Shown here piece after piece: positions 7,824 to 36,926 of a stretch of DNA of 37,762 nucleotides. Every line of letters starts with the position of its first letter. Position 1 is the first letter of the stretch. This DNA is from Myxococcales bacterium (lineage in GTDB: Bacteria > Myxococcota > Myxococcia > Myxococcales > Anaeromyxobacteraceae), in the NCBI GenBank assembly GCA_021779335.1, contig JAJYAW010000001.1:1-37762 (forward strand), read 5' to 3'. Under the pieces are notes generated by a model. That model was not told the DNA's origin, did no database searches, and saw only the letters and a program-made list of their open reading frames with translations. A program made the position numbers and the translations under genes.

Positions 7824-7849
7824 GCCACGAACCCAAGGGAGAACATGCC

Positions 7850-9484: not shown

Positions 9485-9593
9485 GGCTGGGCGGGGCAAG
9501 TCCACCGCCTCGGGCTGGATCGGCCGTCGGGCCTGTGGGGCCGCCGGCCGACCGGTCCACCCCCAACGCGGCGGGGATGGGAGGGAGGTCCAC

Positions 9594-14932: not shown

Positions 14933-15442
14933 CTACGGTGCGGTCGGGAAGGACCCCGTCGTCCCCTCGGCGATCGCCCTGAGCGCCGCCGCCGTGGCGG
15001 GCACGGTGCGCCACCCCATCATCCCCCACTTCATGCTGAAGGCTGGGTAGTCGAGGATTCGGAGCAAGCTCAGTGCCTTGGTCGATTCGTGCCCGGAGTT
15101 GCAGTAGAGAATGATCTCCCTTTCCCTGGAGAGCTTCGCCAGGCTCCGCGGTTCGGCGATCTCCCGTACCGGGATGCTGATGGCCCCCGGGAGGTGCCAG
15201 AGTTCGAACTCCTTCTCGGAGCGGACGTCGACCAGGACGAAGTCACTCTTGCCGGACTGGAGGCGGCCCCGGACCTCGGTCGGTGCCAGCAGGAAGTTGT
15301 TCTCCGGGGTGCTGTCCAGGAAGTGGGCCGCGGCCCGCTGGATGACCTCGGCCTCCCCCGGCGAGAGGGCGCTGGCCTGGCCAGCGGGGGCCAGGAGGGC
15401 CAGGAAGGTCAGCGTGAGGACCGCGGCTCTGCCGTGGGGCAT
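14933..15442 (-). CDS. Secreted single-domain rhodanese (sulfurtransferase)
   Basis: 169 aa from the ATG at 15442, with AAGGAG SD; the track ORF extends further to 15589. Signal peptide MPHGRAAVLTLTFLALLAPAGQASA. Active-site loop ILYCNSGHES. Confidence 0.85.
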   Translation of the reverse strand: MPHGRAAVLTLTFLALLAPAGQASALSPGEAEVIQRAAAHFLDSTPENNFLLAPTEVRGRLQSGKSDFVLVDVRSEKEFELWHLPGAISIPVREIAEPRSLAKLSREREIILYCNSGHESTKALSLLRILDYPAFSMKWGMMGWRTVPATAAALRAIAEGTTGSFPTAP

Positions 15443-15515
15443 GTGGGCTGCTCCTTGGGATGCTGGGGAGGGCGATTCGCGCCTGCGCCACCAGCCTCCG
15501 CGATGCGCCCCCGGA

Positions 15516-15549
15516 AGCCATTGACCGCTCGCAACGGGGAGCCGATTGC
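15516..15549 (+). repeat. Copy A of a ~34-nt intergenic element (AGCC ATTGACCGCTCGCAACG GGGAGCCG ATTGC)
   Basis: Read directly and aligned by eye to five other copies. The ATTGA core begins 77 nt upstream of the rhodanese start (15442, minus strand). Confidence 0.65.
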
Positions 15550-15598
15550 GTCGGACCACCGCGCGACCGAGCCGCCGACGGAGCAGCACCTGGCGGGA

Positions 15599-15618
15599 CC
15601 GAAGACCTGGATCTTCGG
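15599..15618 (-). terminator. Hairpin 20 nt downstream of arsC (possible terminator)
   Basis: CCGAAGA (15599-15605) pairs with TCTTCGG (15612-15618) around a 6-nt loop. No U-tract. Confidence 0.35.
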
Positions 15619-15637
15619 CATGGTGCCCTCCGTGGCC

Positions 15638-16090
15638 TCAGCGCCCGAAGACGACCGCCAGCCGCCGCCTGAGCTCGTCGCGCACCTCCCGGAACGACTG
15701 GAGCTGCGCCACCTCGTCGGCGCCGCGGCCGGCCGGATCCGGCAGCCCCCAGTGGAGGCGCCGGGCCCGGCCCAGGAACACCGGGCACTCCTCCTCGGCG
15801 CACAGGGTGATGACCACGTCCACGCCCTCGGGTGAAATGGTCTCCACGCCCTTGGAGGAGTGCCCGCGGAGGTCGATGCCGAGCTCGTCGAGCGCCTGGA
15901 TGGCAAGCGGGCTGACCCTGGAGGGCCTCGAGCCCGCCGAGGAGACGGTCACGCCGGCGGGCGCCAGCGCCCGGGCGAGCCCCTCGGCCATCTGGCTGCG
16001 CGCCGAGTTGGCGACGCAGAGGAAGAGGAGGTGCCTGGGCGCCAGCCGCCTGAGCTCCTCGGCCTCGGACCGCCAGGGCTCCCCGCTCAC
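15638..16090 (-). CDS. arsC: Arsenate reductase, LMW-PTPase (thioredoxin-coupled) family
   Basis: 150 aa with P-loop [16 protein letters not shown] (CX5R-S). GTG start overlaps the acr3 stop (GTGA). Sits in an ars operon context. Confidence 0.88.
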
Positions 16091-17208
16091 GGCTTCGCCC
16101 CGTTGGCGGCGGGGAAGTCCCCGGCGCAGCTCGCCAGGGCCTCCAGCCGGGCGGTCTCGCCGGGGAACCAGCGGTCGCGCAGCCGCAGGGCCACGTTGAC
16201 CAGGCCGATGAGGACCGGGACCTCCACCAGCGGCCCGATGACCGCCGCGAAGGCCGCGCCGTGCTGCATGGTGAAGGTGGCCACCGCCACCGCGATGGCG
16301 AGCTCGAAGTTGTTCGACGCGGCGGTGAAGGAGAGGGTGACCGTCTGGCCGTAGCTGGCGCCCAGCCGGCGGCTCATGAAGAAGGAGACGAAGAACATCA
16401 CGACGAAGTAGATGAGCAGCGGGATGGCGATGCGCACCACGTCGAACGGCCGCGCCACGATGGCCTTCCCCTGGATGGAGAACATCACCACGATGGTGAA
16501 GAGCAGGGCGAAGAGCGTGATGGGCGAGATGCGCGGGATGAAGACCTTGCGGTACCAGTCCTCACCCCTCCACGCCCGCAGGCCGAAGCGGCTGGCCAGG
16601 CCCGCGGCGAACGGGATCCCCAGATAGACGAGGACGCTCCGGGCGATCTCCCCGATGGTGACGTCCACCTCGGCCCCGGGCAGCCCGAGCCAGCGCGGCA
16701 GCACGGTGATGAAGACCCAGGCATAGACCGAGAAGAAGAGCACCTGGAAGACCGAGTTGAAGGCCACCAGGCCGGCGCAGTACTCGGTGTCGCCGCCGGC
16801 GAGATCGTTCCAGACGATGACCATGGCGATGCAGCGGGCCAGGCCGATCATGATGAGCCCGATCATGTACTCCGGCCGGTCGCGCAGGAAGACCACCGCC
16901 AGCACGAACATGAGGATGGGCCCGATGATCCAGTTCTGCACCAGGGAGAGCGAGAGGATGCGCACGTCCTTGAGGACCCGCGGCAGCTCCTCGTAGCGGA
17001 CCTTGGCGAGCGGCGGGTACATCATGAGGATGAGCCCGATGGCGATGGGGAGCGAGGTGGTGCCGACCTGGAGCCGGTCCACCACCTGCCGAACGCCCGG
17101 CGCCAGGAAGCCGAGCGCGACGCCGGCCCCCATGGCGGCGAAGATCCAGAGCGTCAGGTAGCGGTCGAGGAAGGAGAGGCGGCGGGCGACGCCGGCGGTC
17201 GTGGTCAC
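16087..17208 (-). CDS. acr3: ACR3 family arsenite efflux transporter
   Basis: 373 aa, about 10 TM helices. N-terminus [25 protein letters not shown] and the overall pattern are typical of Acr3/ArsB(ACR3). Lies between arsR and arsC. Confidence 0.92.
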
Positions 17209-17217
17209 GGTGGGCTC

Positions 17218-17577
17218 CTACAGGCTCGCCACGAGCGCCCTCAGGCGGCGCAGGGCGTGCGGTTCGACGCAGTAGCAGACGCGCGGCCCATCGATGTCGC
17301 CGCGGATGAGGCCGGCCTCCTTGAGCACCTTCAGGTGCTGGGAGACGGTGGACTGGGCCAGCGGCAGCTCGTCGACGATGTCGCCGCAGACGCAGGCCTC
17401 GCGGCGGACGAGCAGCCGCAGGATCTGGACCCGGGCGGGGTGGCCCACGGCCTTGGTGAGCGCGGCCAGCTCCTCGTCCGCGGCGGGCCCCTCGACCGGG
17501 CGCAGGTCGGGGCCGGCGTGGCTGGGGTCGGTGGGCTGGCAGGTGGCCTTCCTGACGGACCTGAGGGCGCTCGGCAT
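17218..17577 (-). CDS. arsR: ArsR/SmtB family metalloregulator
   Basis: 119 aa. HTH region [45 protein letters not shown] carries the CVC metalloid-binding motif. Confidence 0.92.
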
Positions 17578-17594
17578 ATCGTCTGTCTACGATA
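17577..17594. promoter_or_regulatory. Inverted repeat TATCGT-N6-ACGATA abutting/overlapping the arsR start codon
   Basis: Read directly: 17577-17582 and 17589-17594. No SD can fit between it and the ATG (17577-17575). Confidence 0.3.
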
Positions 17595-17700
17595 GGCACG
17601 CCGTTCCATGCAAGCGGAAGCGCCGCCAGCCGAGAGCTGTCACCAGGAATTCACCGGACGGTGCGCCGCTGCCCGTGAGGCGGAGGCGCATGACCCGACC

Positions 17701-17734
17701 GGGATCGGCCATCGGTTGCCCGCAATCAATGGCT
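17701..17734 (-). repeat. Copy E (inverted, more diverged) of the ~34-nt intergenic element
   Basis: The reverse complement reads AGCC ATTGATTGCGGGCAACC GATGGCCG ATCCC. It lies in the arsR/tauE divergent region, with its core 94 nt upstream of the tauE start (17827). Confidence 0.5.
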
Positions 17735-17826
17735 TGCGCCCCACCGCGCCCGAGACTGCCGCCGATGCATCGCCCCTGCACAGGCCTGCGGACGGCTCAA
17801 CGCCCTGCCCGCGGAGCGAAGATCGG

Positions 17827-18582
17827 ATGAGCCCGGCCACCCTCCTCGTCTGCGCGCTCCTCGTCCTCGCCTTCTCGGGCCTCATGGCCATGGCGGGCCT
17901 CGGCGCGGCCTTCCTCTTCGTGCCGCTCTTCTATTATCTGGGCGTGCCGCTGGCGGAAGCCACGCCCGCCGCGCTCCTCCTCAACGCGGTGAGCCTCTCG
18001 CTCGCCAGCGTCAACTACTGGCGAGGCGGCCTCGTCGACTGGCGCGTCGGCCTGCCGCTCCTGGTGACCGCGGTGGCGTTCGCGCCGCTCGGCGCCCACC
18101 TGACGCCGCAGGTGGACCGGAGGATCCTGCTCGGGCTCTTCGCCGCCTTCCTCGCCTTCGCCGGGTTCATGATGCTGCGGCGGCGCGCCGGGGTCCGAGG
18201 GCAGGCGCTCGGAAGGGTGGGCACGGCGGCGGCCGGCCTGGGGGTCGGGGGCGCGGCGGGGTTCCTGGGCGGGCTGCTCGGCGTCGGAGGCGGGAACTTC
18301 ATCCTGCCCGTGCTCACCTGGGTGGGGCTCGACGCAAAGGTGGCCGCGGGGACCACGGCCGTCGTCGTGCTCTTCTCCTCCCTCTCGGGGTTCCTCGGCC
18401 ACGCCACCCTGGGCCGACTGGACCCCGTCTTCCTGGGCGTCACCGGGCTCATGGCGGCGGCGGGCTCCGCCGTCGGCTCGCAGCTCATGAAGACCAGGGT
18501 GTCGAGCGTCCAGCTCAAGAAGGTCATCGGCGGCGTGCTCTGGCTCATCGCCGTCAAGATGGCCTTCGATGCCATGAAGTGA
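17827..18582 (+). CDS. TauE/SafE family sulfite-exporter-like permease
   Basis: 251 aa from the ATG at 17827; the upstream part of track ORF 17608.. is not protein-like. Gly-rich TM helices (GLGAAFLFVPLFYYLGVPL ... GGLLGVGGGNFILPVL) are typical of the family. Confidence 0.85.
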   Translation: MSPATLLVCALLVLAFSGLMAMAGLGAAFLFVPLFYYLGVPLAEATPAALLLNAVSLSLASVNYWRGGLVDWRVGLPLLVTAVAFAPLGAHLTPQVDRRILLGLFAAFLAFAGFMMLRRRAGVRGQALGRVGTAAAGLGVGGAAGFLGGLLGVGGGNFILPVLTWVGLDAKVAAGTTAVVVLFSSLSGFLGHATLGRLDPVFLGVTGLMAAAGSAVGSQLMKTRVSSVQLKKVIGGVLWLIAVKMAFDAMK

Positions 18583-18596
18583 AAGGAGACGAGACC

Positions 18597-19217
18597 ATGA
18601 CGACGCCGCACGTCCCGCCCGAATGGGCCTTCGAGTTCCACGCGCACGAGTGCCCGTTCATGCCAATCGGGTACCGCATGGGCAAGCTGGCGCTCGAGCA
18701 CCTCGGCGTGGGGAAGGAGCCCGACCACGGCTTCTTCGTCTTCCCGGAGCTTGGCGAGGGCCACCCGCAGACCTGCATGATGGACGGGATGCAGGTCGCC
18801 ACGGGCGCCACCTACGGGAAGGTCATGATGGCCAAGACCTTCTACGGGAAGCTGGCCGCCACGTTCTTCCACCCGACCAGGGGCGCGGTGCGCTACTCGC
18901 TCCTGCCGGACTTCGTCGACGCCATGGGCGGCTTCGAGTTCTTCGCCTTCCGCAAGCGCGGCGTCGAGCCCTCCCAGATCCCGCTGGCGGTCCGGCGCGA
19001 GGTGATCCAGTGGGTCCACGAGCAGCCCGACGAGGCCCTCTTCAAGGTGGAGGCGCGGCGCGGCTTCACCTACGCGCCGGTCAAGGGGTCCTTCGCCAAG
19101 ACGAGGTGCGCCACCTGCGGCGAATACGTCTTCGACCGCTACTTGCGCTCGAAGGACGGCCGCCCCGCCTGCATCCCCTGCGCGGGCTACGAGAAGACCG
19201 TGGCGGTCGAGCGCTGA
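18597..19217 (+). CDS. FmdE-domain protein with C-terminal CxxC...CxxC zinc ribbon
   Basis: ATG at 18597 with AAGGAG 8 nt upstream; the track start at 18579 is a GTG. FHAHECPFMPIGYRMG and QTCMMDGMQVATGATYGK are typical of FmdE (PF02663-type). Ribbon CATCGEY...CIPC is present. Confidence 0.82.
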   Translation: MTTPHVPPEWAFEFHAHECPFMPIGYRMGKLALEHLGVGKEPDHGFFVFPELGEGHPQTCMMDGMQVATGATYGKVMMAKTFYGKLAATFFHPTRGAVRYSLLPDFVDAMGGFEFFAFRKRGVEPSQIPLAVRREVIQWVHEQPDEALFKVEARRGFTYAPVKGSFAKTRCATCGEYVFDRYLRSKDGRPACIPCAGYEKTVAVER

Positions 19218-19220
19218 CCA

Positions 19221-19247
19221 CCCGGCCGGCGCTCGGCCGCAGCCGGG
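19221..19247. terminator. Hairpin filling the gap between convergent fmdE and CDF genes (possible bidirectional terminator)
   Basis: CCCGGCCGGC pairs with GCCG..GCCGGG (10 bp with a 2-nt bulge) within 19221-19247. Confidence 0.4.
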
Positions 19248-20165
19248 TCACCGCACCGACGCCAGCCGTGGATCCGCCACCACGCCGCTGGCGTCGCAGG
19301 CCACCGCCTCGAGCTGCAGCGTGGCGTGGGCGATGTCGTGCGCGTGGTGCAGCCGCTCCTGGGCGAGCTCGACCAGGCCGGCCGCCTCCGACAAGGGCGC
19401 GTCCGGGATGACCAGATGGGCGCTGGCGGCGCGCAGCCTGGACGAGACGCTCCAGACGTGGACGTGGTGGACGTCGAGGACCCCCGGCACCTGGCGCAGG
19501 CTGGCCGCCACCTGGTCCGCCGAGGCGCCGGCCGGGGCGCCCTCGGAGAGCAGGTGGGCCGCGTCCCGGGTCACGCCGAAGGCGGCCCAGGCCGAGACGA
19601 GGCCGATGGCGATGGAGAGGACGGGATCGACGTGCGGGACGCCGGCCCACATGAGGGCGCCGCCGACGATGACCGCCGCCGAGGCCGCCGCGTCGGCCAG
19701 GAGGTGGAGCAGGGCGCTCCGGGTCCCGAGGTCGTCGTCGGCGTGGGGCCGGAGCAGCAGCGCCGAGCCGGCGTTGGCGGCCAGGGCCACGACGCCGAGG
19801 GCCATGACCATGCCGCCCGGCGGCGAGGCGTCGCTGCCGAGGCGCTGCACGCCCGCCCAGACCAGCGACCCCGCCAGCGGCAGGAGCAGCAGCCCGTTCA
19901 CGAACGCCACCATGGGCTCGGCGCGCAGCAGCCCGAAGGTGCGCGTCGCCGTCGCCGCCCGGAGCGCCAGGCGGGCCCCGACCCAGGCGAGCACCAGGCT
20001 CCCCACGTCGCTCAGGTTGTGGAGGGCGTCGGCCAGCAACGCCAGGCTGCCAGCGTGGAAGCCGACGCCAGCCTCGGCCACCGTGATGACGACGTTGAGG
20101 AGGATGGCTCCGCCGAGGGCCTTGGCGCCCGCCCCCGCGGCGTGGTCGTGCCCGTCGCCGCTCAC
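19248..20165 (-). CDS. Cation diffusion facilitator (CDF) family divalent-metal efflux transporter
   Basis: 305 aa. LNVVITVAEAGVGFHAGSLALLADALHNLSDV is the CDF signature with HxxxD/HxxxD metal sites. A cytoplasmic C-terminal domain is present. Confidence 0.9.
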   Translation of the reverse strand: MSGDGHDHAAGAGAKALGGAILLNVVITVAEAGVGFHAGSLALLADALHNLSDVGSLVLAWVGARLALRAATATRTFGLLRAEPMVAFVNGLLLLPLAGSLVWAGVQRLGSDASPPGGMVMALGVVALAANAGSALLLRPHADDDLGTRSALLHLLADAAASAAVIVGGALMWAGVPHVDPVLSIAIGLVSAWAAFGVTRDAAHLLSEGAPAGASADQVAASLRQVPGVLDVHHVHVWSVSSRLRAASAHLVIPDAPLSEAAGLVELAQERLHHAHDIAHATLQLEAVACDASGVVADPRLASVR

Positions 20166-20806
20166 GCGGCGCCCTGGGCGCTCTTCGCCGGCGCGCCCTG
20201 CCCCGGCCGCTCCAGGCAGGGGATGCAGACCATCCGCTCCCCGTCGACGCGCAGGTAGCGCTCGATGACCAGGTCGCCGCAGACCTCGCAGACGTCGGTG
20301 GCGAAGGTCTCGGCCCGCGGCGCCACCTCGACCCGGAACTCGGGGCCGACGGAGAGGATGCGCTCCTGCGGCGCGCTCAGGACCCCGTCGATGACCGGAT
20401 CCACCACCTCGTCAGGCACCCTGGAGGCGGGGATTCCCCGGGAGCGGTACTCCTTGAAGTACGGCGTGCGGCGCCCGGCCAGCTGGGCCTCCGCGAGCGG
20501 CACCACCCGCACGGACCGGCCGGTGGCCTGCTCCGTGAGCGTCACGCCGAACTTGCCGTGACCCGCCTTGCGAATGTTGCCCTTGCCGAAGGTGCAGCCG
20601 GTGATCATCTGCACCCCGTCGGCGAAGCAGTGGGCGCAGTGATCGTCGCCGAGCTCCAGCACGACGGACAGCTCCTTGTCCTTGGCCCGGGCCACCGCCA
20701 GCGCGTTCATGGCGGCCGCGCCGGCGCGCAGGCCGAGCGGCATGGCGGGGCACTTGTGGCCGTGCAGCTGCTGGCCGGCCTTCAGGAACTCCCTGGCATC
20801 GATCAT
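20162..20806 (-). CDS. FmdE-domain protein with C-terminal zinc ribbon (paralog of 18597..19217)
   Basis: 214 aa. LHGHKCPAMPLGLRAG, HCAHCFADGVQMITGCTFGKGN, ribbon CEVCGD...CIPC. GAGGAG SD is present. Its stop overlaps the CDF start by 4 nt. Confidence 0.85.
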   Translation of the reverse strand: MIDAREFLKAGQQLHGHKCPAMPLGLRAGAAAMNALAVARAKDKELSVVLELGDDHCAHCFADGVQMITGCTFGKGNIRKAGHGKFGVTLTEQATGRSVRVVPLAEAQLAGRRTPYFKEYRSRGIPASRVPDEVVDPVIDGVLSAPQERILSVGPEFRVEVAPRAETFATDVCEVCGDLVIERYLRVDGERMVCIPCLERPGQGAPAKSAQGAA

Positions 20807-20821
20807 CGGTCCACTCCTCGT

Positions 20822-20850
20822 GAGGCCGGGCGCGGGGGTGCGCCGGCCTC
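20822..20850 (-). terminator. Strong GC hairpin between czcA stop and the fmdE RBS (terminator/attenuator candidate)
   Basis: GAGGCCGG(G)CGC pairs with GCGCCGGCCTC (11 bp, one bulge, 5-nt loop). It lies immediately upstream of the fmdE SD. Confidence 0.4.
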
Positions 20851-20876
20851 GTCAAGGTAGTGAGCCCAACGGCGGG

Positions 20877-20910
20877 ATCCATTGAGCGCAGGCAACGGCG
20901 GGCGCATTGC
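20877..20910 (+). repeat. Copy B of the ~34-nt intergenic element (ATCC ATTGAGCGCAGGCAACG GCGGGCGC ATTGC)
   Basis: Read directly. The core begins 74 nt upstream of the fmdE start (20806, minus strand), and the element ends 12 nt from the czcA stop. Confidence 0.65.
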
Positions 20911-20922
20911 CGGCCGCCCTCC

Positions 20923-23900: not shown

Positions 23901-24024
23901 TGGTGACGTCCGGGAAGGCGTCGATGGGGAGGTGCGTCCAGGCCACGCCGCCCAGGACGGCGAGCGCGGCGGCGACGGCGAGGACGAGGAAGCGGTGACC
24001 GAGGACCCACTGGATGGCGCGCAT
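20923..24024 (-). CDS. czcA: CzcA/CusA family heavy-metal efflux RND permease (CzcA-like)
   Basis: 1033 aa. N-terminus LPIDAFPDVTNTQVMVLTKAPGLAAVDVE and PIALRVNELISGVKSDVAVKVFGTDL blocks resemble divalent-cation HME pumps. 12-TM RND architecture. Confidence 0.92.
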   Translation of the reverse strand: MRAIQWVLGHRFLVLAVAAALAVLGGVAWTHLPIDAFPDVTNTQVMVLTKAPGLAAVDVETRVSFPIEQHLRGLPRVKSVRSLSKAELSQVVVVFEDGVDTYWTRQIVFERLAAVKEGLPRGVDPELGPISTGLGEIFQYTLEGDGLSPMDLRTIQDWIVAPLLKPVPGVNEVNSFGGFVKQYQVVVRPERLVEYGLTVREVAEALERSNGNAGGGVVVEGWEQTYLRGVGLMRDIPDIERVVLKAHDGTPIYLRDVADVVIGAEPRQGAVTRDGKGEAVAGMVIMLKGENAKDVVERVKAAIDKARTTLPPGARINVFYDRTSLIEACIKTVMDALLEGGLLVVVVLLLFVAELRTALVVLVSLPLTFLVAFIVMGRVGLTSNLMSLGGLAFSVGMVVDASIVVVENVRRHLAHRTDAPRRRIVAEAVNEVARPVAFSVLVIAVILVPLYALQGIEGKMFAPLASTMLIALLVSLAVALLVIPVLSEIALAQAPEREFAFVRRFHAGYLSLLDKAVSHPRRTIGLSLAVLVGAGALVPLVGTEFMPALDEGAIAINVVRLPNASLQGSVEVARYLERQLKAYPEVETVVSKTGRAEISEDPMGPEQTDVFVMLKPRRSFGRDRSRAELAEVMQRDLSRLPGLRFSFSQPIALRVNELISGVKSDVAVKVFGTDLALLKGYADRIAVAMGGVRGASDVKVEQVSGLSQYDVVIDREAAARHGISVGDVNDTIESAIAGKAATTLIEEQRRFAVVVRFPPGSRDDIGRIGRLLVAAPGGERVPLSQLARIELVEAPAQVSRENGIRRVVVEANIRGRDLGGFVAELQEKLKPFEKELPPGTFLELGGQFENQQRAMRTLAVVVPIALVLILLLLYLALGSFGDALLVLLNLPFALVGGVVAVVVFRMPVSVSAAVAFIVLLGVAVQNGVVLVAFLRQLRDEGRTVAEAVREGCNLRFRPLLMTALTSFIGHLPMLFAQGSGADIQRPLAVVVMGGLVTSTLLTLLVLPAVYLALAGARAGPGGMAQEDAVRGTS

Positions 24025-24033
24025 AAGGGGGGC

Positions 24034-26564: not shown

Positions 26565-26682
26565 GTGAACCTCGTGGCGAGCGTGCGGCGCGACGCCAGC
26601 GCGGCCTGAAGGCCGTGCTGGGTGCGCGGGGCGCAGGATGAGCGGGAGCCGCGCCCGTTCGACGCGGCGGCGACGTGCTCTG

Positions 26683-27009
26683 CTACGAGTGGATGGGCGG
26701 CCGGTGCGGCGGCGTCGGCTCGTGGAGCGACGCGAGCGCGTCCGGCGCGGCGGGGAGGCCTGCCGCGACCACCGAGCTGGCGGGCGCCGCTCCGGCGCGT
26801 CCCAGCGCCACGGCCTGCGAGGCGCAGCAGTTGCAGTGGTGCTGGGTGGCGCCGCAGCCGTGCTCGTCCCCCTGGTCGCCCAGGTCGCCGTGGTCGGCGT
26901 CCGAGTGGGCCAGGTGGCCCGACGTCGCGAGGTGGACCGCGGTCTCGACGACCTCGCCGAGCCCCGGGGCCGCCCCGACCGCCAACCACATGACCAGCAG
27001 GAGCCGCAT
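26683..27009 (-). CDS. Small secreted His/Cys-rich protein heading the czc operon
   Basis: 108 aa from the ATG at 27009 inside track ORF 26683..27138. Signal-like MRLLLVMWLAVGAAPGLG, then HLATSGHLAHSDADHGDLGDQGDEHGCGATQHHCNCC. Third positions are almost all G/C. No clear SD. Confidence 0.55.
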   Translation of the reverse strand: MRLLLVMWLAVGAAPGLGEVVETAVHLATSGHLAHSDADHGDLGDQGDEHGCGATQHHCNCCASQAVALGRAGAAPASSVVAAGLPAAPDALASLHEPTPPHRPPIHS

Positions 27010-27165
27010 CGAGCGCGCACGATACCGATTCGGCCCGGGGCGCGCAAAGGAGGACGCCGGCCTGGCGCGCCCCGGTCGCGGCGCGGGCCAGGGGCCGGTG
27101 GTCCCTCGACGACGGCGACCTGATGATGGCTCCCGCATGGCTCCCTCTCCAGGACGAGGTGCTCC

Positions 27166-28602
27166 TCAGCGTTCTGCGGCCTCTCCCCACCCGCCGCCCA
27201 GCGCCTTGACCAGGGCCACGGCCGCTGCCGCCCGCTGGCCTCGCGATCGGACCACGGCGCGGTCGCGCTCCAGCGCCACCGCCTCCGCCACCACCACCGG
27301 CAGGTAGCTGACGAGCCCGTGCTCGTACCGGCTGCGCGCCATGCTCGCCTGGGCGCGAGCGGCGGCCGCGGCCGCCTGGAGCCGCAGGTGCTCCTCGGCG
27401 AGCCAGGTCTGGGCGGCCAGGCCGTCCTCCACCTCGGCGAGCGCCGAAAGCACGACCTCCCGGTAGCGCGCCACCGCCTCGTCCCAGCCGGCCCGTGCGC
27501 CGCGCTCGTTGGCGTGCAGCAGGCCGCCCTGGAAGAGCGGCAGCGTGAGCGAGCCGCCCAGCGCCCAGAAGAGGCTCGGCGCGGTGAAGAGGCTGGCCAC
27601 CTCGACGCCCTGGGTCCCTCCGCCGGCCCCGAGGCGGAGCGAGGGGTAGAAGGCCGCCTCGGCCAGCCCGACACCGGCGTTGGCGGCCGCCATGCGCCGC
27701 TCGGCCGCGCCCACGTCGGGGCGCCGCTCCAGGAGCTGCGAGGGGAGCCCCGGCGGCAGCGGCGGCGGCTCCGGCGGCGGCGGCCCCTCGGCCAGGCGGA
27801 AGACCGGGGCCGGCTGGCCGGTCAGGACGGCCAGGGCGTGCTCGAAGCGGGCGCGCGCCAGGGCGTTGGGCGGGAGGAGGGCCTCGGCGGACCGGAGCGA
27901 CGTGTCGGCCTGCGCCACGTCGAGGTCGGAGACGATCCCCGCGTCCCGCCTGGCCTTGACCACCTCGAGCGCCCCCCGGTACCCGTCCACGGTCGCGGTG
28001 AGGAGGCGCCGCTCGTCGTCCAGCGCCCGCAGCGCGAAGTAGTCGGCCGCCACCTCGGCCGCGAGCGCCAGCCGGACCGACTCCAGGTCGGCGGCCTCTG
28101 CCTCCTCCCGTGCCTGGGCCGACTCCACCTGGCGCCGCACCCGGCCCCAGAGGTCCAGCTCCCAGCCCAGGTCGAACGGGACGGTGAAGGCGTCGTAGGT
28201 GAAGCTCCTGCCCGCGGCCACGCCCGTCGTCGAGAGGGGGCGCTCCGCCGAGTCGTGCTGGCGCGTGGTCGACGCCGCGACGCCGATGCGCGGGAACAGC
28301 CCCGAGCGGGCCACGTCACCCGCCGCGCGCGCCTGGCTGAACCGGGCGGCGGCGGCCTTGAGCCGCTGGCTCCCGTCGACGGCCAGCCGCTCGAGCCGGT
28401 CGAGCTCGGGGTCCCCGAAGACCAGCCACCACTCGCCGCGGGGCTGTCGATCCCCGGGCGCCGCCACCTTCCAGGCGCCGCCCCCCGCGAACGCTTCGGG
28501 CATCCGGTCGACGGCGTCCGGCCGCACGTACTCCGGACCCACCGTGCAGGCGGCCAGGAGCGCGCCCGCCAGCAGGGAGGTGGCCAGCGCCGGGGAGCTC
28601 AT
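27166..28602 (-). CDS. RND efflux outer-membrane factor lipoprotein (NodT family)
   Basis: 478 aa from the ATG at 28602 (ATGA overlap with the adaptor stop). Lipobox LLAAC followed by TVGPEYVRP, the hallmark NodT N-terminus. C-terminus ...KALGGGW is also typical. Confidence 0.9.
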   Translation of the reverse strand: MSSPALATSLLAGALLAACTVGPEYVRPDAVDRMPEAFAGGGAWKVAAPGDRQPRGEWWLVFGDPELDRLERLAVDGSQRLKAAAARFSQARAAGDVARSGLFPRIGVAASTTRQHDSAERPLSTTGVAAGRSFTYDAFTVPFDLGWELDLWGRVRRQVESAQAREEAEAADLESVRLALAAEVAADYFALRALDDERRLLTATVDGYRGALEVVKARRDAGIVSDLDVAQADTSLRSAEALLPPNALARARFEHALAVLTGQPAPVFRLAEGPPPPEPPPLPPGLPSQLLERRPDVGAAERRMAAANAGVGLAEAAFYPSLRLGAGGGTQGVEVASLFTAPSLFWALGGSLTLPLFQGGLLHANERGARAGWDEAVARYREVVLSALAEVEDGLAAQTWLAEEHLRLQAAAAAARAQASMARSRYEHGLVSYLPVVVAEAVALERDRAVVRSRGQRAAAAVALVKALGGGWGEAAER

Positions 28603-29783
28603 CGCCCGCCCTCCGCGGCCGGCTCCGCGGCGATCCGCACCACCGCGCCGGCAGCCAGGGCGTCCGAGGGGTTGAGGATCACTGCGTCCCCCGCGGAGAC
28701 TCCCGAGAGGAGCTCGACGGTTCGCCCGAAGTCGCGCCCGAGCCGGACGGACCGAAGCTCGACGCGGCCGTCCTTCCCGACCACCCCGACGCGTGGCCCC
28801 TCCTCGCGGAAGAGCAGCGTGTTGGCGGGAAGGGTGAGCGGCGCAGGTCGCCGCCCGCCGAGGAGCCTCGCCTCGGCGTAGCCACCGGGGAGGATGTCGC
28901 CGAGAGCATTGGCGAGCTCGAGCTCCACCAGCAGCGTCCGAGACTCCGGGGAGAGGGCCCCGGCGCTGCGCGCCACCACCGCCGGGAGGGCCTTCCCGCC
29001 CAGCTCGGGCAGCAGCACCTCGGCCGGCTGGCCTGCGGCGACGCCCGCCGCCCAAGCCTGGGGCACCCGAAGGGAGACGCGCAGCGTGCCGGCCTGGACG
29101 ACCCGGAAGAGCTCCCGCCCGCCCCCGCCGGTCACCAGATCCCCCACGTCGACGCGCCGGGACGTGACGATCCCCGCGAAGGGCGAACGGATGAGGGTGA
29201 ACGCCCTGAGCTGCTCGAGCCTCCTCACGTTGGCCAGGGCGGCGTCGCGCGCCGCCGTCTTGACCGCCAGGTCCCCTCCGCGCTCCGCCACCTCCTGATC
29301 GCTGACGCTCGGGGTGCCGGCCAGCCCCTGGTAGCGGCCCGCCGTGTTGGCCGCGAGCGCCAGGGCGGCCTCGGCCTGGGCGGCCTCCTGGCGACCCCGG
29401 GCGAGCTCCTGGTCCAGCTCCGGACTCTCGAGCTCGGCGAGCAGGCTCCCTGCGGCGACGTGCCCCCCGATGTCCGTGGTCCACCGCCTCACGTAGCCGC
29501 TCGCCCTCGCCACGATGGAGGCCTCGAGGAGCGGCTTGATCTCCGCCGGGAAGGCGGGTGGCGTGGCCGGCTTGCCGGGCTTGGGCGAGACCACCCGGAC
29601 GACTGCGACCGCGAGCTCGCGGCGCTCGGCCGTCAGCGCGACCCGCGCGCGCCACCGCGGGAAGGCGCCGGCCAGGGCGCCGGCGACCACGGCCACGGCC
29701 ACGGCCACGACGAGGACGGCACGGCGACCGCCGGGCGTGGCGGGTGGCGTCGGAGCTGGCTCGACGGAAGGGGGGCGGAGCAT
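28599..29783 (-). CDS. Efflux RND periplasmic adaptor subunit (MFP)
   Basis: 394 aa. N-terminal TM anchor and HlyD-type lipoyl/hairpin/beta-barrel pattern (IVARASGYVRRWTTDIGGHVAAGSLLAELESPEL). Confidence 0.88.
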   Translation of the reverse strand: MLRPPSVEPAPTPPATPGGRRAVLVVAVAVAVVAGALAGAFPRWRARVALTAERRELAVAVVRVVSPKPGKPATPPAFPAEIKPLLEASIVARASGYVRRWTTDIGGHVAAGSLLAELESPELDQELARGRQEAAQAEAALALAANTAGRYQGLAGTPSVSDQEVAERGGDLAVKTAARDAALANVRRLEQLRAFTLIRSPFAGIVTSRRVDVGDLVTGGGGRELFRVVQAGTLRVSLRVPQAWAAGVAAGQPAEVLLPELGGKALPAVVARSAGALSPESRTLLVELELANALGDILPGGYAEARLLGGRRPAPLTLPANTLLFREEGPRVGVVGKDGRVELRSVRLGRDFGRTVELLSGVSAGDAVILNPSDALAAGAVVRIAAEPAAEGGR

Positions 29784-29791
29784 GGCGGGCC

Positions 29792-32700
29792 TCAGGCTTC
29801 GGCAGGGGGATTGCTGACGGTGCGGGGGGTGGCGGCGCTGCGGTGGAGCGCCGCGAAGACGGCCGGGACGAGGTAGAGCGTCGCCACGGTGGCGACGGCG
29901 AGCCCCCCGATGACGGCGCGCCCGAGCGGAGCGTTCTGCTCACCCCCATCACCGGTCCCCAGCGCGATGGGCACCATCCCGACGATCATCGCCAGGGCCG
30001 TCATGAGGACCGGGCGCAGGCGGCCCGTGCCGGCCTCCCACGCCGAGGCGACCGGATCCAGCCCTCGCCGGAGGTTGGCGCGTGCGAAGGTCACCACCAG
30101 GACCGAGTTGGCGGTGGCCACCCCCAGGCTCATGATGGCGCCCAGCAGCGCGGGCACGCTGAGCGGGGTGAGGGTGAGATAGAGACCCCAGGCCACCTCG
30201 GCCAGCGCGGCCGGGAGCGCCGAGACGATGATCAGCGGATCGGTCCAGCTCTGGAAGTTGATGACGAGCAGGAGGTAGGCCAGGACCACTGCGGCGGCCA
30301 ACCCGAACCCCAGGCCAGAGAAGCTGGAGCGCATGGTCTCGGCCTGGCCGCGCACGGTCAGGTACGATCCCGGAGGAAGCGCCTGCCTGGCTTGCGCGAG
30401 GAGCGGCGCCATGTCGTCGAGCACGCCGCCCAGGTCGCGGCCTGCCACGCCGCCGTAGACGTCGATGACGGGCTGGATGTCCCGGTGGGAGAAGACTGGC
30501 GGGACGGAGGTCCTCCCGATGGTGGCGACGCCGCCGAGCAGCGGGACGTCGGCCTCCCCGGCCCGGCTCACCCCAACGGGGAACGCCTGGAGCGCCTCGA
30601 TCGAGTCCACCTCGACCTGGGGCACGTGCGTGTTGACGAGGTACTGGACCCCGTTGCGCGGATTGAGCCAGTAGGCCGGCTGGGCCTGGCTGCTCCCGCT
30701 GAGGCCGAGGAGGAGCGAGCTGGCGACGTCCCGCGCGGTCAGCCCCATGCCGGACGCCTTGAGCCGGTCCACCGCGACCCGGAGCCTCGGGAGGTCGGCC
30801 GGCTGCTGGACGCGCACGTCCACCGCCCCATCCACCTCGCGGAGCCGCTCGACGAGCCGCTGGGCCACCGCCCGGCTCCTCGCCTGGTCCCGCCCCACGA
30901 TCTGGACATCGAACGGCGCGGGCAGCCCGAAGTTGAGCGTCTGGCTCACGATGTCGGCCGGGAGGAAGTAGAAGGTGGTCCCCGGGAAGGCCCCGAGGAG
31001 CCGGGAGCGGAGCCGCCGTGCGTACCCCTCGGTGGATCGGTGGCCCGGCCGGAGGGAGACCAGCACGTCCGCGTCGCCGGTGCCGACGAGCCCGTTGTCG
31101 ATGTAGGTGAGCGGTATTCCCCCCGATGGGATCCCGATGTTGTCGAGGATGCCGGCCACCTCGCCGGGGGGCAGCTCCTCCCGGATCACCCGCTCGACCT
31201 CATCGGTGAGGCGCGCTGTCTCCTCGATCCGCGTGCCGGTGGGGGCGCGCAGGTGGAGCCGGAGCTGTCCGGTGTCGACCGACGGGAAGAAGTCCCGGCC
31301 GAGCCAGGGCACCAGCAGGGCCGTTGCCGCGAGGAAGGCGAGGGCGCTCCCCAGGGCCAGCCGGCGGTGGCGCAGCACCGCGGAGAGCGAGCGAGCGTGG
31401 CCGTCGCGCAGCCGGGCGAAGCCGCGCTCGAAGGCGGCCTGGGCGGCCACCAGGGGCCGCAGCCACGGCCGCAGCGGCGCGGCGGCCCCGGCGGGCTGGC
31501 CGTGGCCGGCACCCCGGTAGAACCACGCCACCAGCGTCGGGACGAGCGTCCGCGAGAGCGCGTAGCTGGCCAGCACCGCGAAGATCACCGCCTCCGCCAG
31601 CGGGACGAAGAGGTACCGCGCGGTTCCGGTCAGGAAGAACATCGGCACGAACACGACGGCGATGCAGAGGGTGCCGACGAAGGTGGGCAGCGCGATCTCC
31701 TGGGCCCCGTCCAGGATGGCCTGGACGGTCCCCTTCCCCTGGTCGAGGTGGCGGTGGACGTTCTCGATGGTGACGGTGGCGTCGTCGACCAGGATGCCCA
31801 CCGCCAGGGCCAGCCCGCCCAGCGTCATGAGGTTGATGGTCTCGCCGAGCGCGTGGAGGGTGAGGATGGAGGCCAGCACCGAGAGGGGGATCGAGAGGGC
31901 GATGATGAAGGTGCTGCGCCAGGAGCCGAGGAAGAGGAGCACCATGGCCGCGGTGAGGAGGGCGGCGATCAGCCCCTCCACGACGACGCTGCGGATGGCG
32001 GCGCGGACGAAGACCGACTGGTCTGCGAACTCCCGCACCTCGAGCCCCGGCGGGAGCCCGGCCAGGATGCGGGGCATGGCGGCCTTGACCCCGCCGACCA
32101 CGTCGAGCGTGGAGGCGGCGCCGCTCTTCAGGATGGTGAGCAGCACGCCGCGGACCCCATCGAGCCTGACCACGTTCTGCTGCGGCTCGGCCCCGTCGTG
32201 GACGTGGGCCACGTCCCGCACCAGGATGGTCGCCCCGTCCACCGTGCGGACGGGGAGCTCGTTCATGGCGTCCAGGACCTCCGGGCTGCTGTTGAAGGCG
32301 ACGTCGTACTCGGTCGGGCCGATCTTGGCGGTGCCGCTGGGCAGGATGAAGCTCTGGGCGTTGACGGCGTTGACCACGTCGAGCGGCGTGAGGCGCCTGG
32401 ACTTCAGCGCCGCCAGGTCCAGGTCGACGGTCACGTTGCGGGCCTTCCCGCCGTACGGGTACGGGACGGAGGCGCCCTTGACGTTGGCCAGCCCGATGCG
32501 GACCTGGTTGAAGGCCAGGTCCTGCAGCTCCTGCTCGGAGAGCTTCCTGCTGGCGAGGCTGTACTGGAGGATGGGGACCGTCGAGGCGCTGTAGCGGATG
32601 ATGATGGGAGGCGCCTGGCCGGGCGGGAGGCGGCGCAGGATGGCCTGGCCGCTCGCGGTGACCTGGGCCACGCCCGCGTCCACCGAGCCGCCGGGCTGGA

Positions 32701-32986
32701 GGAAGACCTTGATGACCCCGGCGCCGCCGTAGGAGGTCGACTCGGTGTGCTCCACGCCGTCCACGGTCGAGCTGATCATCCGCTCGTGGTTGTAGACGAT
32801 GCGCTGCTCGATCTCCTGGGCGCTCAGGCCGTTGTAGAGCCAGATGACGCTGACCACCGGGATGTCGACGCTCGGGAAGATGTCCGTCGGCATGCGCAGC
32901 AGGACGACCGGGGCCGAGAGCAACAGGAGCAAGGCGCCCACCACGAAGGTGTAGGGCCTGCTCAGCGCGAGGCGGACGATCCACAT
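29792..32986 (-). CDS. Efflux RND permease (AcrB/HAE-type)
   Basis: 1064 aa from the ATG at 32986 (MWIVRLALSRPYTFVVGALLLLL...DIFPSVDIPVVSV); the track ORF runs on to 33406. 12-TM RND pattern. Confidence 0.9.
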   Translation of the reverse strand: MWIVRLALSRPYTFVVGALLLLLSAPVVLLRMPTDIFPSVDIPVVSVIWLYNGLSAQEIEQRIVYNHERMISSTVDGVEHTESTSYGGAGVIKVFLQPGGSVDAGVAQVTASGQAILRRLPPGQAPPIIIRYSASTVPILQYSLASRKLSEQELQDLAFNQVRIGLANVKGASVPYPYGGKARNVTVDLDLAALKSRRLTPLDVVNAVNAQSFILPSGTAKIGPTEYDVAFNSSPEVLDAMNELPVRTVDGATILVRDVAHVHDGAEPQQNVVRLDGVRGVLLTILKSGAASTLDVVGGVKAAMPRILAGLPPGLEVREFADQSVFVRAAIRSVVVEGLIAALLTAAMVLLFLGSWRSTFIIALSIPLSVLASILTLHALGETINLMTLGGLALAVGILVDDATVTIENVHRHLDQGKGTVQAILDGAQEIALPTFVGTLCIAVVFVPMFFLTGTARYLFVPLAEAVIFAVLASYALSRTLVPTLVAWFYRGAGHGQPAGAAAPLRPWLRPLVAAQAAFERGFARLRDGHARSLSAVLRHRRLALGSALAFLAATALLVPWLGRDFFPSVDTGQLRLHLRAPTGTRIEETARLTDEVERVIREELPPGEVAGILDNIGIPSGGIPLTYIDNGLVGTGDADVLVSLRPGHRSTEGYARRLRSRLLGAFPGTTFYFLPADIVSQTLNFGLPAPFDVQIVGRDQARSRAVAQRLVERLREVDGAVDVRVQQPADLPRLRVAVDRLKASGMGLTARDVASSLLLGLSGSSQAQPAYWLNPRNGVQYLVNTHVPQVEVDSIEALQAFPVGVSRAGEADVPLLGGVATIGRTSVPPVFSHRDIQPVIDVYGGVAGRDLGGVLDDMAPLLAQARQALPPGSYLTVRGQAETMRSSFSGLGFGLAAAVVLAYLLLVINFQSWTDPLIIVSALPAALAEVAWGLYLTLTPLSVPALLGAIMSLGVATANSVLVVTFARANLRRGLDPVASAWEAGTGRLRPVLMTALAMIVGMVPIALGTGDGGEQNAPLGRAVIGGLAVATVATLYLVPAVFAALHRSAATPRTVSNPPAEA

Positions 32987-33018
32987 GGTGAACCCAACCT
33001 GCGCCTCGGCGCCATGGA

Positions 33019-33051
33019 CTCCATTGACCCCAGGCAACCGGCGTCGATTCT
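33019..33051 (+). repeat. Copy F of the ~34-nt intergenic element (CTCC ATTGACCCCAGGCAACC GGCGTCG ATTCT)
   Basis: Read directly, with a spacer one nt shorter. It lies in the divergent region between the RND permease (start 32986) and the ferredoxin-like gene (start 33143). Confidence 0.6.
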
Positions 33052-33142
33052 CGCCGCCGAGCGTCCTCCGCTGGAGTCTACTGGTGCCCTGCCCAGGGCC
33101 GCGGCCTCCCGCCGCACCCCGGCCGGCAGCGAGGAGCACGCC

Positions 33143-33775
33143 ATGAGCGCCACCCAGCAGTCCTGGCACGGCATCCCCCGCGAGGAGATCCCTTGGTTCC
33201 CCACGGTCGACGCAGAGGCGTGCATCGGTTGCCAGCTCTGCTTCGTCACCTGCGGCCGCGGGGTCTACGAGATGGACGCCCGCGTGGCCAATGTCGCGAA
33301 GGGGCTCTCCTGCATGGTCGGCTGCAGCACCTGCGCCGCGGTCTGCCCCACCCAGGCCATCTCGTTCCCCGAGCGCGAGCTCGTGTGGCGGGTGGAGCGG
33401 GAGCACAAGATCTTCCGCGAGGTGAGGCGCGAGGCAGCGGACAAGCAGGCCAAGCTCGACTCGGCCAAGGCGCGCGCCGCCGCCGGGGCGCGGGTCGCCG
33501 CCCTGCCCACCCGGGCCCGGCTGGAGGTCGCCGGCGTGTTCGGCCAGAGGGCCTTCGTCGCCAGGCTGGAGCAGCTGCTGGAGGGGAGGCCCTTCGACGT
33601 GGTCAAGCTCAAGCTCGAGATCCCGACCGTCAAGGGCGCCGCCGAGAGGACACCCGGCTTCATGTCCTTCGAGGTGACGTCGACCGACCAGGCGGACGTG
33701 ACGCCCTTCCTCGAGGAGCTCCGGCAGCTCGTCCGCGACAGCGAGCTGGTGCTCGTCGACGAGGCCCGGCTGTAA
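33143..33775 (+). CDS. 4Fe-4S ferredoxin-domain protein with an uncharacterised ~110-aa C-terminal extension
   Basis: 210 aa from the ATG at 33143 (GAGGAG 6 nt upstream); it is the tail of track ORF 29558..33775. Cluster motifs CIGCQLCFVTCG and CMVGCSTCAAVCP are present. Confidence 0.8.
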   Translation: MSATQQSWHGIPREEIPWFPTVDAEACIGCQLCFVTCGRGVYEMDARVANVAKGLSCMVGCSTCAAVCPTQAISFPERELVWRVEREHKIFREVRREAADKQAKLDSAKARAAAGARVAALPTRARLEVAGVFGQRAFVARLEQLLEGRPFDVVKLKLEIPTVKGAAERTPGFMSFEVTSTDQADVTPFLEELRQLVRDSELVLVDEARL

Positions 33776-33799
33776 GCCCAGGCGCCTCGCGCTCCGCGG

Positions 33800-36139: not shown

Positions 36140-36204
36140 GGACCCCTCGGGGCACTTCGACGGGACCCCTACTTCACGCGGCGGCGCCACGAGGCAGCCA
36201 CGCC

Positions 36205-36666
36205 TCAGGGCGCGCGGCGCCACCCAGCCCAGCGGGGCACGCCCATCGCGTCACGCAACTGGAGCACCTGGTCGCCCTTCCGGATCGAGGCAGCCAGGAG
36301 CACCTGCTTCCCGTCCACCGCGACGCGCGAGCCCTCGACCTCGACGCCGTCGCCCTTGGCGAAGCTGAGCTCCTGGTTCTCGAGGAACCACACCGGAGCA
36401 AGGTGGACGGCCACCTGGGCGGTCGTGGTCCTGACCACCAGCTCGACGCCGGGGGACATCCCGCGCAGCGGGGTGGTCTTGCGGATCTCGAGGATCTCAC
36501 CAGCCACCCTCTCGACCTTCGCCGGGTCGTAGAGGCGGGCGTAGGCGCCGCCCGGTCCCCAGCCCTGGGCCCCGCGCCAGCGGAACCCCTGCGCAGCGCT
36601 GTTCGTGGGGACGACCGAGAACAGGACCACAGCGGTCGACAGCGACAGCATCACGTGTGGCTTCAT
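36205..36666 (-). CDS. Small secreted beta-rich protein (153 aa), family not confidently recognised
   Basis: ATG at 36666 with strong SD GGGAGGAG. Signal peptide MKPHVMLSLSTAVVLFSVVPTNSAAQ. G/C-rich third positions. Lies 65 bp upstream of the patatin gene on the same strand. Confidence 0.7.
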   Translation of the reverse strand: MKPHVMLSLSTAVVLFSVVPTNSAAQGFRWRGAQGWGPGGAYARLYDPAKVERVAGEILEIRKTTPLRGMSPGVELVVRTTTAQVAVHLAPVWFLENQELSFAKGDGVEVEGSRVAVDGKQVLLAASIRKGDQVLQLRDAMGVPRWAGWRRAP

Positions 36667-36828
36667 TTGACTCCTCCCTGCTTCCATCAAATCCGTCCCG
36701 GAGGCACCGGAGTACGTCATCGCGGGGTGACACCGAGGCGTGCGACCGCCTGGATCCCGAGGAGATCCTCCTGGGCTTGCGGCCAGATGGCGGCTTCCCG
36801 CGCCGCGCGGGTGCGGGTCGAAAGCGGC

Positions 36829-36862
36829 GCCCGTTGACCGCAGGCAACGCCCGGCCGGCCAG
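36829..36862 (+). repeat. Copy C of the ~34-nt intergenic element (GCCC GTTGACCGCAGGCAACG ...; third block not conserved)
   Basis: Read directly. 17-nt core at 36833-36849, with perfect 5-bp arms CGTTG/CAACG. Confidence 0.6.
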
Positions 36863-36892
36863 CCGTTCGCGGGCGCTGGACCGGGGCGCCGC

Positions 36893-36926
36893 GGCCATTG
36901 ACCGCACTCAACGCGCGGTGGATCGC
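36893..36926 (+). repeat. Copy D of the ~34-nt intergenic element (GGCC ATTGACCGCACTCAACG CGCGGTGG ATCGC)
   Basis: Read directly, 64 bp after copy C. Both lie in the 352-bp divergent region between 36666 (minus) and 37019 (plus). Confidence 0.65.

Follow-up and report, generated by a model that had tools for sequence, protein, structure and literature searches.

A dyad-symmetric box at metal and efflux promoters of an Anaeromyxobacteraceae genome is probably the operator of a lineage-specific CRP/FNR-family regulator

We analysed a 37,762-nucleotide stretch of DNA from a Myxococcales bacterium of the Anaeromyxobacteraceae (GenBank assembly GCA_021779335.1, contig JAJYAW010000001.1, positions 1 to 37,762), hereafter the window, in which a preliminary description had pointed out six copies (A to F) of a tripartite element of ~34 nucleotides between genes for metal handling and efflux. 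The same DNA is present in ENA ERZ27236866:k141_498913 and in the metagenome-assembled genomes (MAGs) GCA_027351025.1 and GCA_027417255.1. The nearest named homologues of the ArsR, FmdE and CRP-like proteins come from Anaeromyxobacter or Anaeromyxobacteraceae, placing the source among uncultured Anaeromyxobacter-like Myxococcota. Megablast of 12 kb of the window against plasmids returned distant ACR3 matches only. The leftmost part of the right half carries a rhodanese gene (minus strand; copy A), arsC, ACR3 and arsR (minus; copy E), and tauE and fmdE (plus). These are followed by genes for a cation diffusion facilitator (CDF) and a second FmdE (minus; copy B), by czcA, czcB, an OEP gene and a 108-aa gene (minus), and by a second OEP gene with genes for a membrane fusion protein and an RND permease (minus; copy F). 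A ferredoxin gene (plus), patatin and small secreted-protein genes (minus; copies C and D) and tolC (plus) occupy the right end. The analysis described below suggests that the copies are probably operators of a single CRP/FNR-family factor encoded elsewhere in the same genome.

A re-scan of the window recovered all six copies at the positions and on the strands first reported. With three mismatches allowed, a loose IUPAC pattern matched six times against 2.2 matches expected, a modest excess, and six or more matches were obtained in 3 of 100 shuffles. In a leave-one-out analysis, each omitted copy still ranked within the top six of the window, with at least 19.6 bits, and the next best match scored at most 16.4 bits. 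The next best matches to the matrix of all six sites were the opposite strands of the same sites, which was a first sign of dyad symmetry. An independent matrix built solely from 19 copies of other genomes, used at a threshold of at least 20 bits, found exactly the six reported copies, and only 2 of 200 Markov-1 random windows contained any match at this threshold. The window is densely coded, with 72% G+C and a non-coding fraction of 5.9%, as determined from the public gene calls of the identical contig together with Pfam and start-codon checks. All six sites are non-coding and fall into 5 of the 15 gaps of at least 40 bp, a placement with a chance probability of ~7e-7 when counted as five independent regions. 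The other ten such gaps contained no box, and scanning the left 15 kb yielded no further copy. The matrices thus single out six sites within the window, all of them intergenic as first proposed, and the distances originally given to the downstream start codons proved correct to within ~3 nt.

The architecture of the motif was derived from 25 sites of nine genomes or contig sets. TTGA and CAA were invariant and 7 nt apart in all 25 sites, and the consensus read yC(A/G)TTGAC-yGCA-GGCAACG. In a cultured Anaeromyxobacter (locus L269) the box was a perfect palindrome, GTTGACTGCAGTCAAC, so TTGAC represents a half-site rather than a -35 hexamer. The box has the format of two 5-bp half-sites set 4 bp apart over 14 bp (TTGAT-N4-ATCAA type), with G rather than T before CAA in most sites, and the FNR consensus, TTGATnnnnATCAA, shares its TTGA/CAA spacing (PMC3688515). 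The third part of the tripartite element was found to be real and sharply placed across genomes. On the GCAAC side of the box it reads W-T-Y, its T at +18.5, counted from the centre, being present in 21 of the 25 sites (1.9 bits), with W at +17.5 and Y at +19.5. The other side shows only a faint mirror image, and copy C lacks the element. Inspection of the 25 sites revealed no recognisable second full box overlapping this third element.

Eight other related contig sets, from Anaeromyxobacter and relatives, also carry the box. Where it precedes orthologous fmdE and tauE genes, its distance to them is fixed. Alignment of the upstream regions of fmdE (six genomes) and tauE (four genomes) showed that the conserved blocks were the box and a -10-like hexamer; the flanks had diverged. 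In the related DNA that we sampled (~130 kb), the box occurred only near tauE, fmdE, crp, efflux or thioredoxin genes. In L241-244 it precedes tauE and a 108-aa/czcCBA operon but not arsR, and two other Anaeromyxobacter arsR loci (40 kb) contained no box. Locus L258 has boxes upstream of fmdE, of a ferredoxin gene and of its partial first gene, whose upstream stretch matches that before the tolC gene of the window. A metagenome fetch based on TauE gave 80 loci (L161-L240), mostly from unrelated lineages with 44-70% G+C, of which one contained the box, namely the high-GC contig L180. There it lies upstream of tauE in the orientation of copy E, with its centre 121.5 nt from the ATG, indicating that tauE is widely shared and the box is lineage-specific. 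Scans of genome contigs with the motif pattern gave at least 117 singleton matches in unrelated taxa, and scans of viral contigs gave 39 singletons, both consistent with chance.

A candidate regulator was found beside the box. In L257, L260, L261 (from an A. oryzisoli isolate) and L262, a gene with cNMP_binding and HTH_Crp_2 domains lies directly upstream of fmdE, with one box before this crp gene and another between it and fmdE. The encoded protein has ~230-240 residues (PF00027 and PF13545). The copy of the window organism, P0243, is encoded outside the window; its contig is not that of the metal gene island but comes from the same sample and MAG (ENA ERZ27236866 k141_2706655, locus L263, 4757-5476; GCA_027417255.1 DAIBOO010000299.1, L266). 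The P0243 gene is preceded by the box TCATTGACCGGGGGCAACGA, centred 55.5 nt upstream of its ATG; it is divergent from an operon for a phosphodiesterase, a thioredoxin, DsbD, ArsP_1 and thioredoxin_3, and convergent with another RND pump. A homologue search gave ~300 relatives, P0243 among them, the named ones only from Anaeromyxobacter. By tblastn of P0243 against the window and the loci collected up to that point, the gene was found only in six distinct contexts, all of them box-bearing. In five of the six, a box lies immediately upstream of the regulator gene, and in the sixth, two boxes lie within 2.3 kb. Other regulator genes of these loci did not co-occur consistently with the box, and neither LysR nor ArsR genes tracked it. 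The LysR gene of the window (3604-4533) was rejected as a source of the binder, since its own divergent gap contains no box.

Matches in the Protein Data Bank (PDB) place the regulator among Crp/Dnr-type proteins (best E = 5e-22). All six orthologues share the recognition helix VAPESLSRA, in which PESLSR aligns with PETFSR of Dnr (IQPETFSRI) and is identical to PESLSR of 3h3z/3fx3. An E-x-x-S-R recognition helix is the FNR pattern and, without an equivalent of CRP Arg180, goes with TTGA half-sites; the candidate has this helix and no Arg at the CRP R180 position. Cysteines are absent from P0243, from the A. oryzisoli orthologue P0265 and from the proteins of L260, L262 and L257. P0288 has a single cysteine, at residue 20, and no FNR-type cluster. 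The lack of a cysteine cluster argues against an FNR-type iron-sulfur cluster, so the regulator is not FNR proper. On inspection, the sensor-domain motif reads FGFMPFLDGRPYPA, and FGE and R(S/T)A of the phosphate-binding cassette are replaced by FGF and RPY, a degeneration that makes cAMP an unlikely ligand. The regulator scored 38 bits with the NCBIfam CRP model (cut-off 266) and stayed far below the cut-offs of all named NCBIfam equivalogs considered (FtrB, FixK, CRP, NtcA and FNR).

We examined the position of the box relative to putative promoter elements. At six fmdE promoters, a hexamer lies 30-35 nt from the box centre on the CCATTGA side (TACCTT, TAGCTT, TACCTT, TAGGTT, TAGCTT and TACGGT), five of them reading nAnnnT in register and the TAGCTT of L261 lying 1 nt further from the centre. 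Hexamers of the form nAnnnT occur in the same register at the tauE promoters (GAGACT three times, CAGGAT once) and at the rhodanese (GAGGCT) and RND (CAGGTT) promoters. Over the 25 sites, the expected A was present in 17 and the expected T in 13, against a background of ~14% each. If this hexamer is the -10, the box would be centred at -41.5, the class II position, and most FNR-activated promoters have their site at -41.5 (PMC3688515). The fmdE, tauE, rhodanese and RND promoters have no -35-like hexamer; the would-be -35 stretch reads AATGGn, consistent with dependence on an activator. The leaders would then be ~35-40 nt long for fmdE and essentially absent for the RND operon.

The crp genes are read the opposite way from their box. 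Here TACACT or TAGAGT occupies +40.5 to +45.5, the ATG follows near +54.5, and the third element coincides with a -35-like TTTGGG located 16-17 nt upstream of TACACT/TAGAGT. This arrangement implies a box near -53 and leaderless transcripts of the regulator gene. The predicted -10 ends 7-8 nt before the crp start codons (L260 3173, L261 9209, L263 4757), and the predicted start of the RND operon lies ~3 nt before the ATG at 32986. The spacing suggests that leaderless transcripts occur in this lineage.

Copy A (15516-15549, plus strand) lies in the gap between the arsC stop (15638) and the rhodanese start (15442). Its box, CCATTGACCGCTCGCAACGG, spans 15518-15537, with the TTGA-N7-CAA core at 15521-15534 and the third element, GATTGC, at 15544-15549. 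The predicted target is the rhodanese-domain gene (14933-15442, minus), whose ATG is 85.5 nt from the box centre; the putative -10, GAGGCT (15493-15498, minus), lies 30-35 nt from that centre and would put the box at about -41.5. A public call of a 70-aa open reading frame (15409-15621, minus), without a Pfam match, spans copy A and overlaps the rhodanese start; it is probably a spurious call in DNA of this base composition. Copy E (17701-17734, minus; box 17713-17732; third element GATCCC, 17701-17706) occupies the divergent gap between arsR (ATG 17577) and tauE (ATG 17827). The predicted target operon (17827-19217, plus) consists of tauE (17827-18582) and an fmdE/zinc-ribbon gene (18597-19217), and the hexamer of its predicted -10, GAGACT (17752-17757, plus), is found unchanged and at equal distance from the box in L180 and L257. 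Copy B (20877-20910, plus; box 20879-20898; third element CATTGC, 20905-20910) is flanked by the czcA stop (20923) and the fmdE start (20806). The operon predicted to respond to it (19248-20806, minus) comprises fmdE (20162-20806) and the CDF gene (19248-20165), with a putative -10, TACCTT (20854-20859, minus), that is kept as TA(C/G)nnT at equal distance in four of five other genomes and is 1 nt off in L261.

Copy F (33019-33052, plus; box 33021-33040; third element ATTCTC, 33047-33052) is located in the gap that separates the RND permease operon (ATG 32986) from the divergent 4Fe-4S ferredoxin-like gene (ATG 33143). Its predicted target operon (27166-32986, minus) encodes the RND permease (29792-32986), the membrane fusion protein (28599-29783) and an outer membrane factor (27166-28602), with a putative -10, CAGGTT, at 32996-33001 (minus). 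With the box centre 44.5 nt from the ATG, the RND transcript would be leaderless or nearly so. The ferredoxin-like gene (33143-33775, plus) is a possible second target in the opposite direction; box F and the downstream stretch GGAGTCTACTGGTGCCCT recur upstream of the Fer4 gene in L258. Copies C (36829-36862, plus; box 36831-36850) and D (36893-36926, plus; box 36895-36914) are arranged in tandem, 64 bp or about six helical turns from centre to centre (36831-36914). Copy C has no -10-like hexamer at class II distance in either direction and is nearly equidistant from both divergent start codons (~175 and 178.5 nt). Copy D has a counterpart in L258 that is followed by the same stretch (GCGCCGGCTCAsATCGTG) and precedes the first gene of that locus; this gene is partial (349 aa), has no domain on record and was taken as TolC-like. 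The TolC-like outer membrane efflux gene of the window (OEP domain; 37019-37762, plus), which runs beyond the window end, starts 114.5 nt from the centre of box D and is a probable target of D and C. The divergent gene for a small secreted protein with a signal peptide and no Pfam match (36205-36666, minus) is another possible target (163 and 227 nt). At the tolC gene (copy D and its L258 match) and the ferredoxin gene (copy F and its L258 match), conserved TCAGAT, TCACAT or TCTACT hexamers are present at +46.5 to +51.5, which suggests a class-I-like position of the box at about -58 to -61; class I activators occupy sites at -61.5 or beyond.

Several features of the neighbourhood were recorded alongside the box. 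The conserved 108-aa gene, without a Pfam match (window 26683-27009, minus; L241 3666-3992), precedes OEP-czcB-czcA genes in both places; in L241 a box lies 50 nt upstream of it, and the gap of the window counterpart (27010-27165) contains none. In L269 and L270, two cultured Anaeromyxobacter (GCA_022690695.1 and GCA_022808855.1), fully palindromic boxes at 11879-11898 and 12995-13014 are separated from the regulator gene by 1.2-2.3 kb; they occur close to a thioredoxin gene and upstream of a DUF4395 gene, with an IS66 fragment nearby. In the 80 TauE-fetched contigs, which span 44%-70% G+C, tauE is linked with fmdE-type, CDF and thioredoxin-like genes, as in the window (17827-20806). The fmdE-type proteins have a C-terminal CxxC zinc ribbon ending in CIPCSGYDR, and three FmdE-domain genes lie in or beside the tauE group of the window. 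The box-free region 4688-14909 holds a large extracellular-electron-transfer-like module with genes for a 631-aa rhodanese-like protein, a Porin_O_P porin, an MtrC-like cytochrome, two multihaem cytochromes (615 and 426 aa), a Rieske protein, cytochrome b and cytochrome c. The contig upstream of the window (L002, 1-7845) encodes a thioredoxin, a thioredoxin reductase and an extracytoplasmic function (ECF) sigma factor fused to a zf-HC2 anti-sigma domain. It and window positions 1-3566 carry a radical-SAM/DUF5714/methyltransferase trio followed by YeiH-like, SQR-like, GST and thioredoxin genes, a sulfur- and arsenic-flavoured neighbourhood with no copy of the box.

Taken together, we consider it likely, at a probability of roughly 0.78, that the copies are operators of one lineage-specific CRP/FNR-family factor, predicted to activate genes for the handling of metals, arsenic and sulfur. 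Each copy would bind a dimer of this factor, P0243 in the present organism, through the FNR-type dyad TTGA-N6-(G/T)CAA. At the rhodanese, fmdE-CDF, tauE-fmdE and RND promoters, where the box is ~41.5 bp upstream of the presumed start, the factor would recruit RNA polymerase as a class II activator. Its own gene would have the box near -53, beside the -35-like TTTGGG and a TACACT/TAGAGT -10 of a seemingly leaderless transcript, and at tolC and the ferredoxin gene the box would act from further upstream in a class-I-like manner. The tested features qualify the box as a CRP/FNR-family operator but as neither a strict FNR site, given the missing iron-sulfur cysteine cluster, nor a CRP site, given the wrong half-site and the degenerate cAMP cassette. 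We infer activation rather than repression, and the predicted target genes point to metal(loid), thiol or sulfur stress as the probable signal. The original suggestion of a shared operator for one regulator is thereby supported, with a CRP/FNR-family protein of the same MAG as its probable binder. The accompanying rule that every copy has a gene downstream of its CCATTGA end fits A, B, E and F, for which class II geometry explains it.

Some observations weigh against this interpretation. The regulator gene of L269 and L270 has no box directly upstream, one box of L241 lies at the 3' end of a called open reading frame and points the other way, and copies C and D depart from the -41.5 geometry, with C fitting no scheme. 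Most sites are asymmetric, the right half-site being mostly GGCAA and not GTCAA, and the third element at +18.5 lies beyond the expected reach of a CRP-type dimer. The assignment of the protein to the motif, moreover, rests on linkage and family logic. At class II promoters of CRP, the alpha C-terminal domain of RNA polymerase docks near -60. The third element would also lie near -60 in class II geometry and might, purely as a hypothesis by analogy, be the docking region of that domain.

Other explanations of the box were weighed against the same evidence. The box could be bound by a different dimeric regulator, with the CRP/FNR gene as a target and not the source of the binder. Linkage alone cannot separate a regulator from a regulated gene, and the third element and the asymmetry of the half-sites are unusual for CRP/FNR sites. 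This we regard as unlikely, because the E-x-x-S-R recognition helix fits the TTGA-N6-TCAA format, no competing regulator gene consistently accompanies the box, and a box in a regulator's own promoter is the usual sign of autoregulation. Another possibility is that the ArsR/SmtB repressor encoded at 17218-17577 uses the box as its operator to repress itself and neighbouring metal genes; this reading draws on the location of copy E upstream of arsR, on the metal- and arsenic-related content of the island and on the 4-N8-4 dyad geometry, which resembles some ArsR-family operators. However, no box precedes the arsR orthologues (76-96% identity among the matches listed) of L241-245, L246-250, L251-256, L258 and L260, the box stays with tauE, fmdE and crp on those same contigs, and the L180 box stands before tauE with no arsR nearby. 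ArsR was rejected as the binder, since the box does not accompany its orthologues, and this explanation appears highly improbable.

Two further explanations build on readings raised in the preliminary description, one of them being that TTGACC-N17-GATnnC forms a sigma-70 promoter or a promoter of an alternative or ECF sigma factor. TTGAC does resemble a -35 hexamer, the third element of the crp genes coincides with the -35-like TTTGGG, and ECF sigma genes are found nearby in L002, L261 and L262. Nevertheless, GATnnC does not have the T at -7 that a -10 requires, transcription from copies A and B would run antisense into arsC and czcA, and the spacer is conserved as strongly as the supposed hexamers. 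TTGAC is half of a dyad, the third element of the crp genes falls at the -35 and not at the -10, and the dyad core, perfect in L269, fits a dimeric factor rather than sigma, so that neither the -35/-10 assignment nor the alternative sigma factor is upheld and a promoter element of this kind seems quite improbable. By eye, sigma-54 (GG-N10-GC), ECF (AAC-N16/17-CGT) and SigR-type (GGAAT-N18-GTT) spacings did not fit the six copies in either orientation. The other reading took the element as an intergenic repeat without a gene-specific role, resembling repetitive extragenic palindromic (REP) sequences, bacterial interspersed mosaic elements (BIMEs) or miniature inverted-repeat transposable elements. 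The copies are indeed short, imperfectly palindromic and strictly intergenic, and A and B lie just downstream of arsC and czcA. Yet they form no stable or shared hairpin, with DNA folding z-scores of -1.1 to +0.3 and a structure that differs from copy to copy. Of the five regions, three are divergent promoter gaps, the spacing between box and start codon at fmdE and tauE is kept across genomes with diverged flanks, and the remaining gaps of the window and 40 kb of other Anaeromyxobacter DNA contain no copy. Hairpin, REP and structured-RNA readings were discarded, as folding was no better than that of shuffles, and Rfam covariance models had no match at the gathering threshold anywhere in the window. 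The repeat-family explanation is consequently very hard to sustain.

Control of metal and arsenic resistance is normally ascribed to ArsR, MerR or two-component regulators, and Anaeromyxobacter is an important genus for metal and arsenic cycling in paddy soil and sediment. In this genus, arsenic-linked, zinc/cobalt (CDF), heavy-metal RND/TolC, TauE/FmdE and rhodanese genes would come under a single, uncharacterised CRP/FNR-type regulator, and such an activator would add a layer of control over metal and arsenic resistance. An anonymous repeat thus becomes a testable regulon, and this regulon would offer a way to approach what the widespread tauE-fmdE-CDF gene group does. Both the box and the regulator gene occur in cultured strains (A. 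oryzisoli and relatives), making the prediction directly testable. More tentatively, and with distinct doubt, we propose that a Cys-less, Anaeromyxobacter-restricted CRP/FNR branch may serve as a metal(loid)/thiol/sulfur stress sensor that co-activates arsenic-linked, CDF, RND/TolC, TauE/FmdE, rhodanese and thioredoxin/DsbD/ArsP genes from class II positions, with an extra contact 18.5 bp from the box centre. If so, this contact would be the sign of a fixed arrangement of protein and RNA polymerase that can be used in both directions. We know of no characterised CRP/FNR-family member with such a signal and regulon.

In full-text searches of a literature library, we found neither a CRP/FNR regulator of arsenic or metal genes described in Anaeromyxobacter nor an fmdE-tauE-CDF regulon. 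Among known systems, the REP and BIME repeats share with the box that it is a short, imperfect palindrome confined to intergenic DNA, but they differ from it in that the box forms no stable hairpin, was found in few copies, keeps a fixed distance to start codons and sits in divergent promoter gaps. ArsR/SmtB operators are likewise short dyads at metal and arsenic resistance promoters, and one copy of the box does lie upstream of arsR; the box differs from them in following tauE, fmdE and the CRP/FNR gene, not arsR, in related genomes. With CRP of E. coli, the candidate regulator shares the protein family, the fold class, a dimer on a dyad and the logic of class I and class II promoters, whereas CRP reads a TGTGA half-site with the Arg that begins its recognition helix, and here Pro and TTGA are found instead. 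The box would work in the manner of the FNR/FixK/Dnr boxes (TTGAT-N4-ATCAA), with which it shares the dyad format of 14 bp and the 7-nt interval from TTGA to CAA. The likeness extends to the candidate protein with its cNMP-binding-like and HTH_Crp domains and E-x-x-S-R helix, to a predicted box position ~41.5 bp from the presumed start at promoters without a -35, and to a regulator gene with a box of its own. The present system differs from these in a sensor domain devoid of cysteine, a distal half-site that is usually GGCAA, the additional conserved W-T-Y at +17.5 to +19.5, and predicted targets in metal(loid) and sulfur efflux and handling, not in respiration or denitrification. The kind of gene control is familiar, and what is new is the branch of the regulator, the predicted metal(loid), sulfur and efflux regulon, and the element at +18.5.

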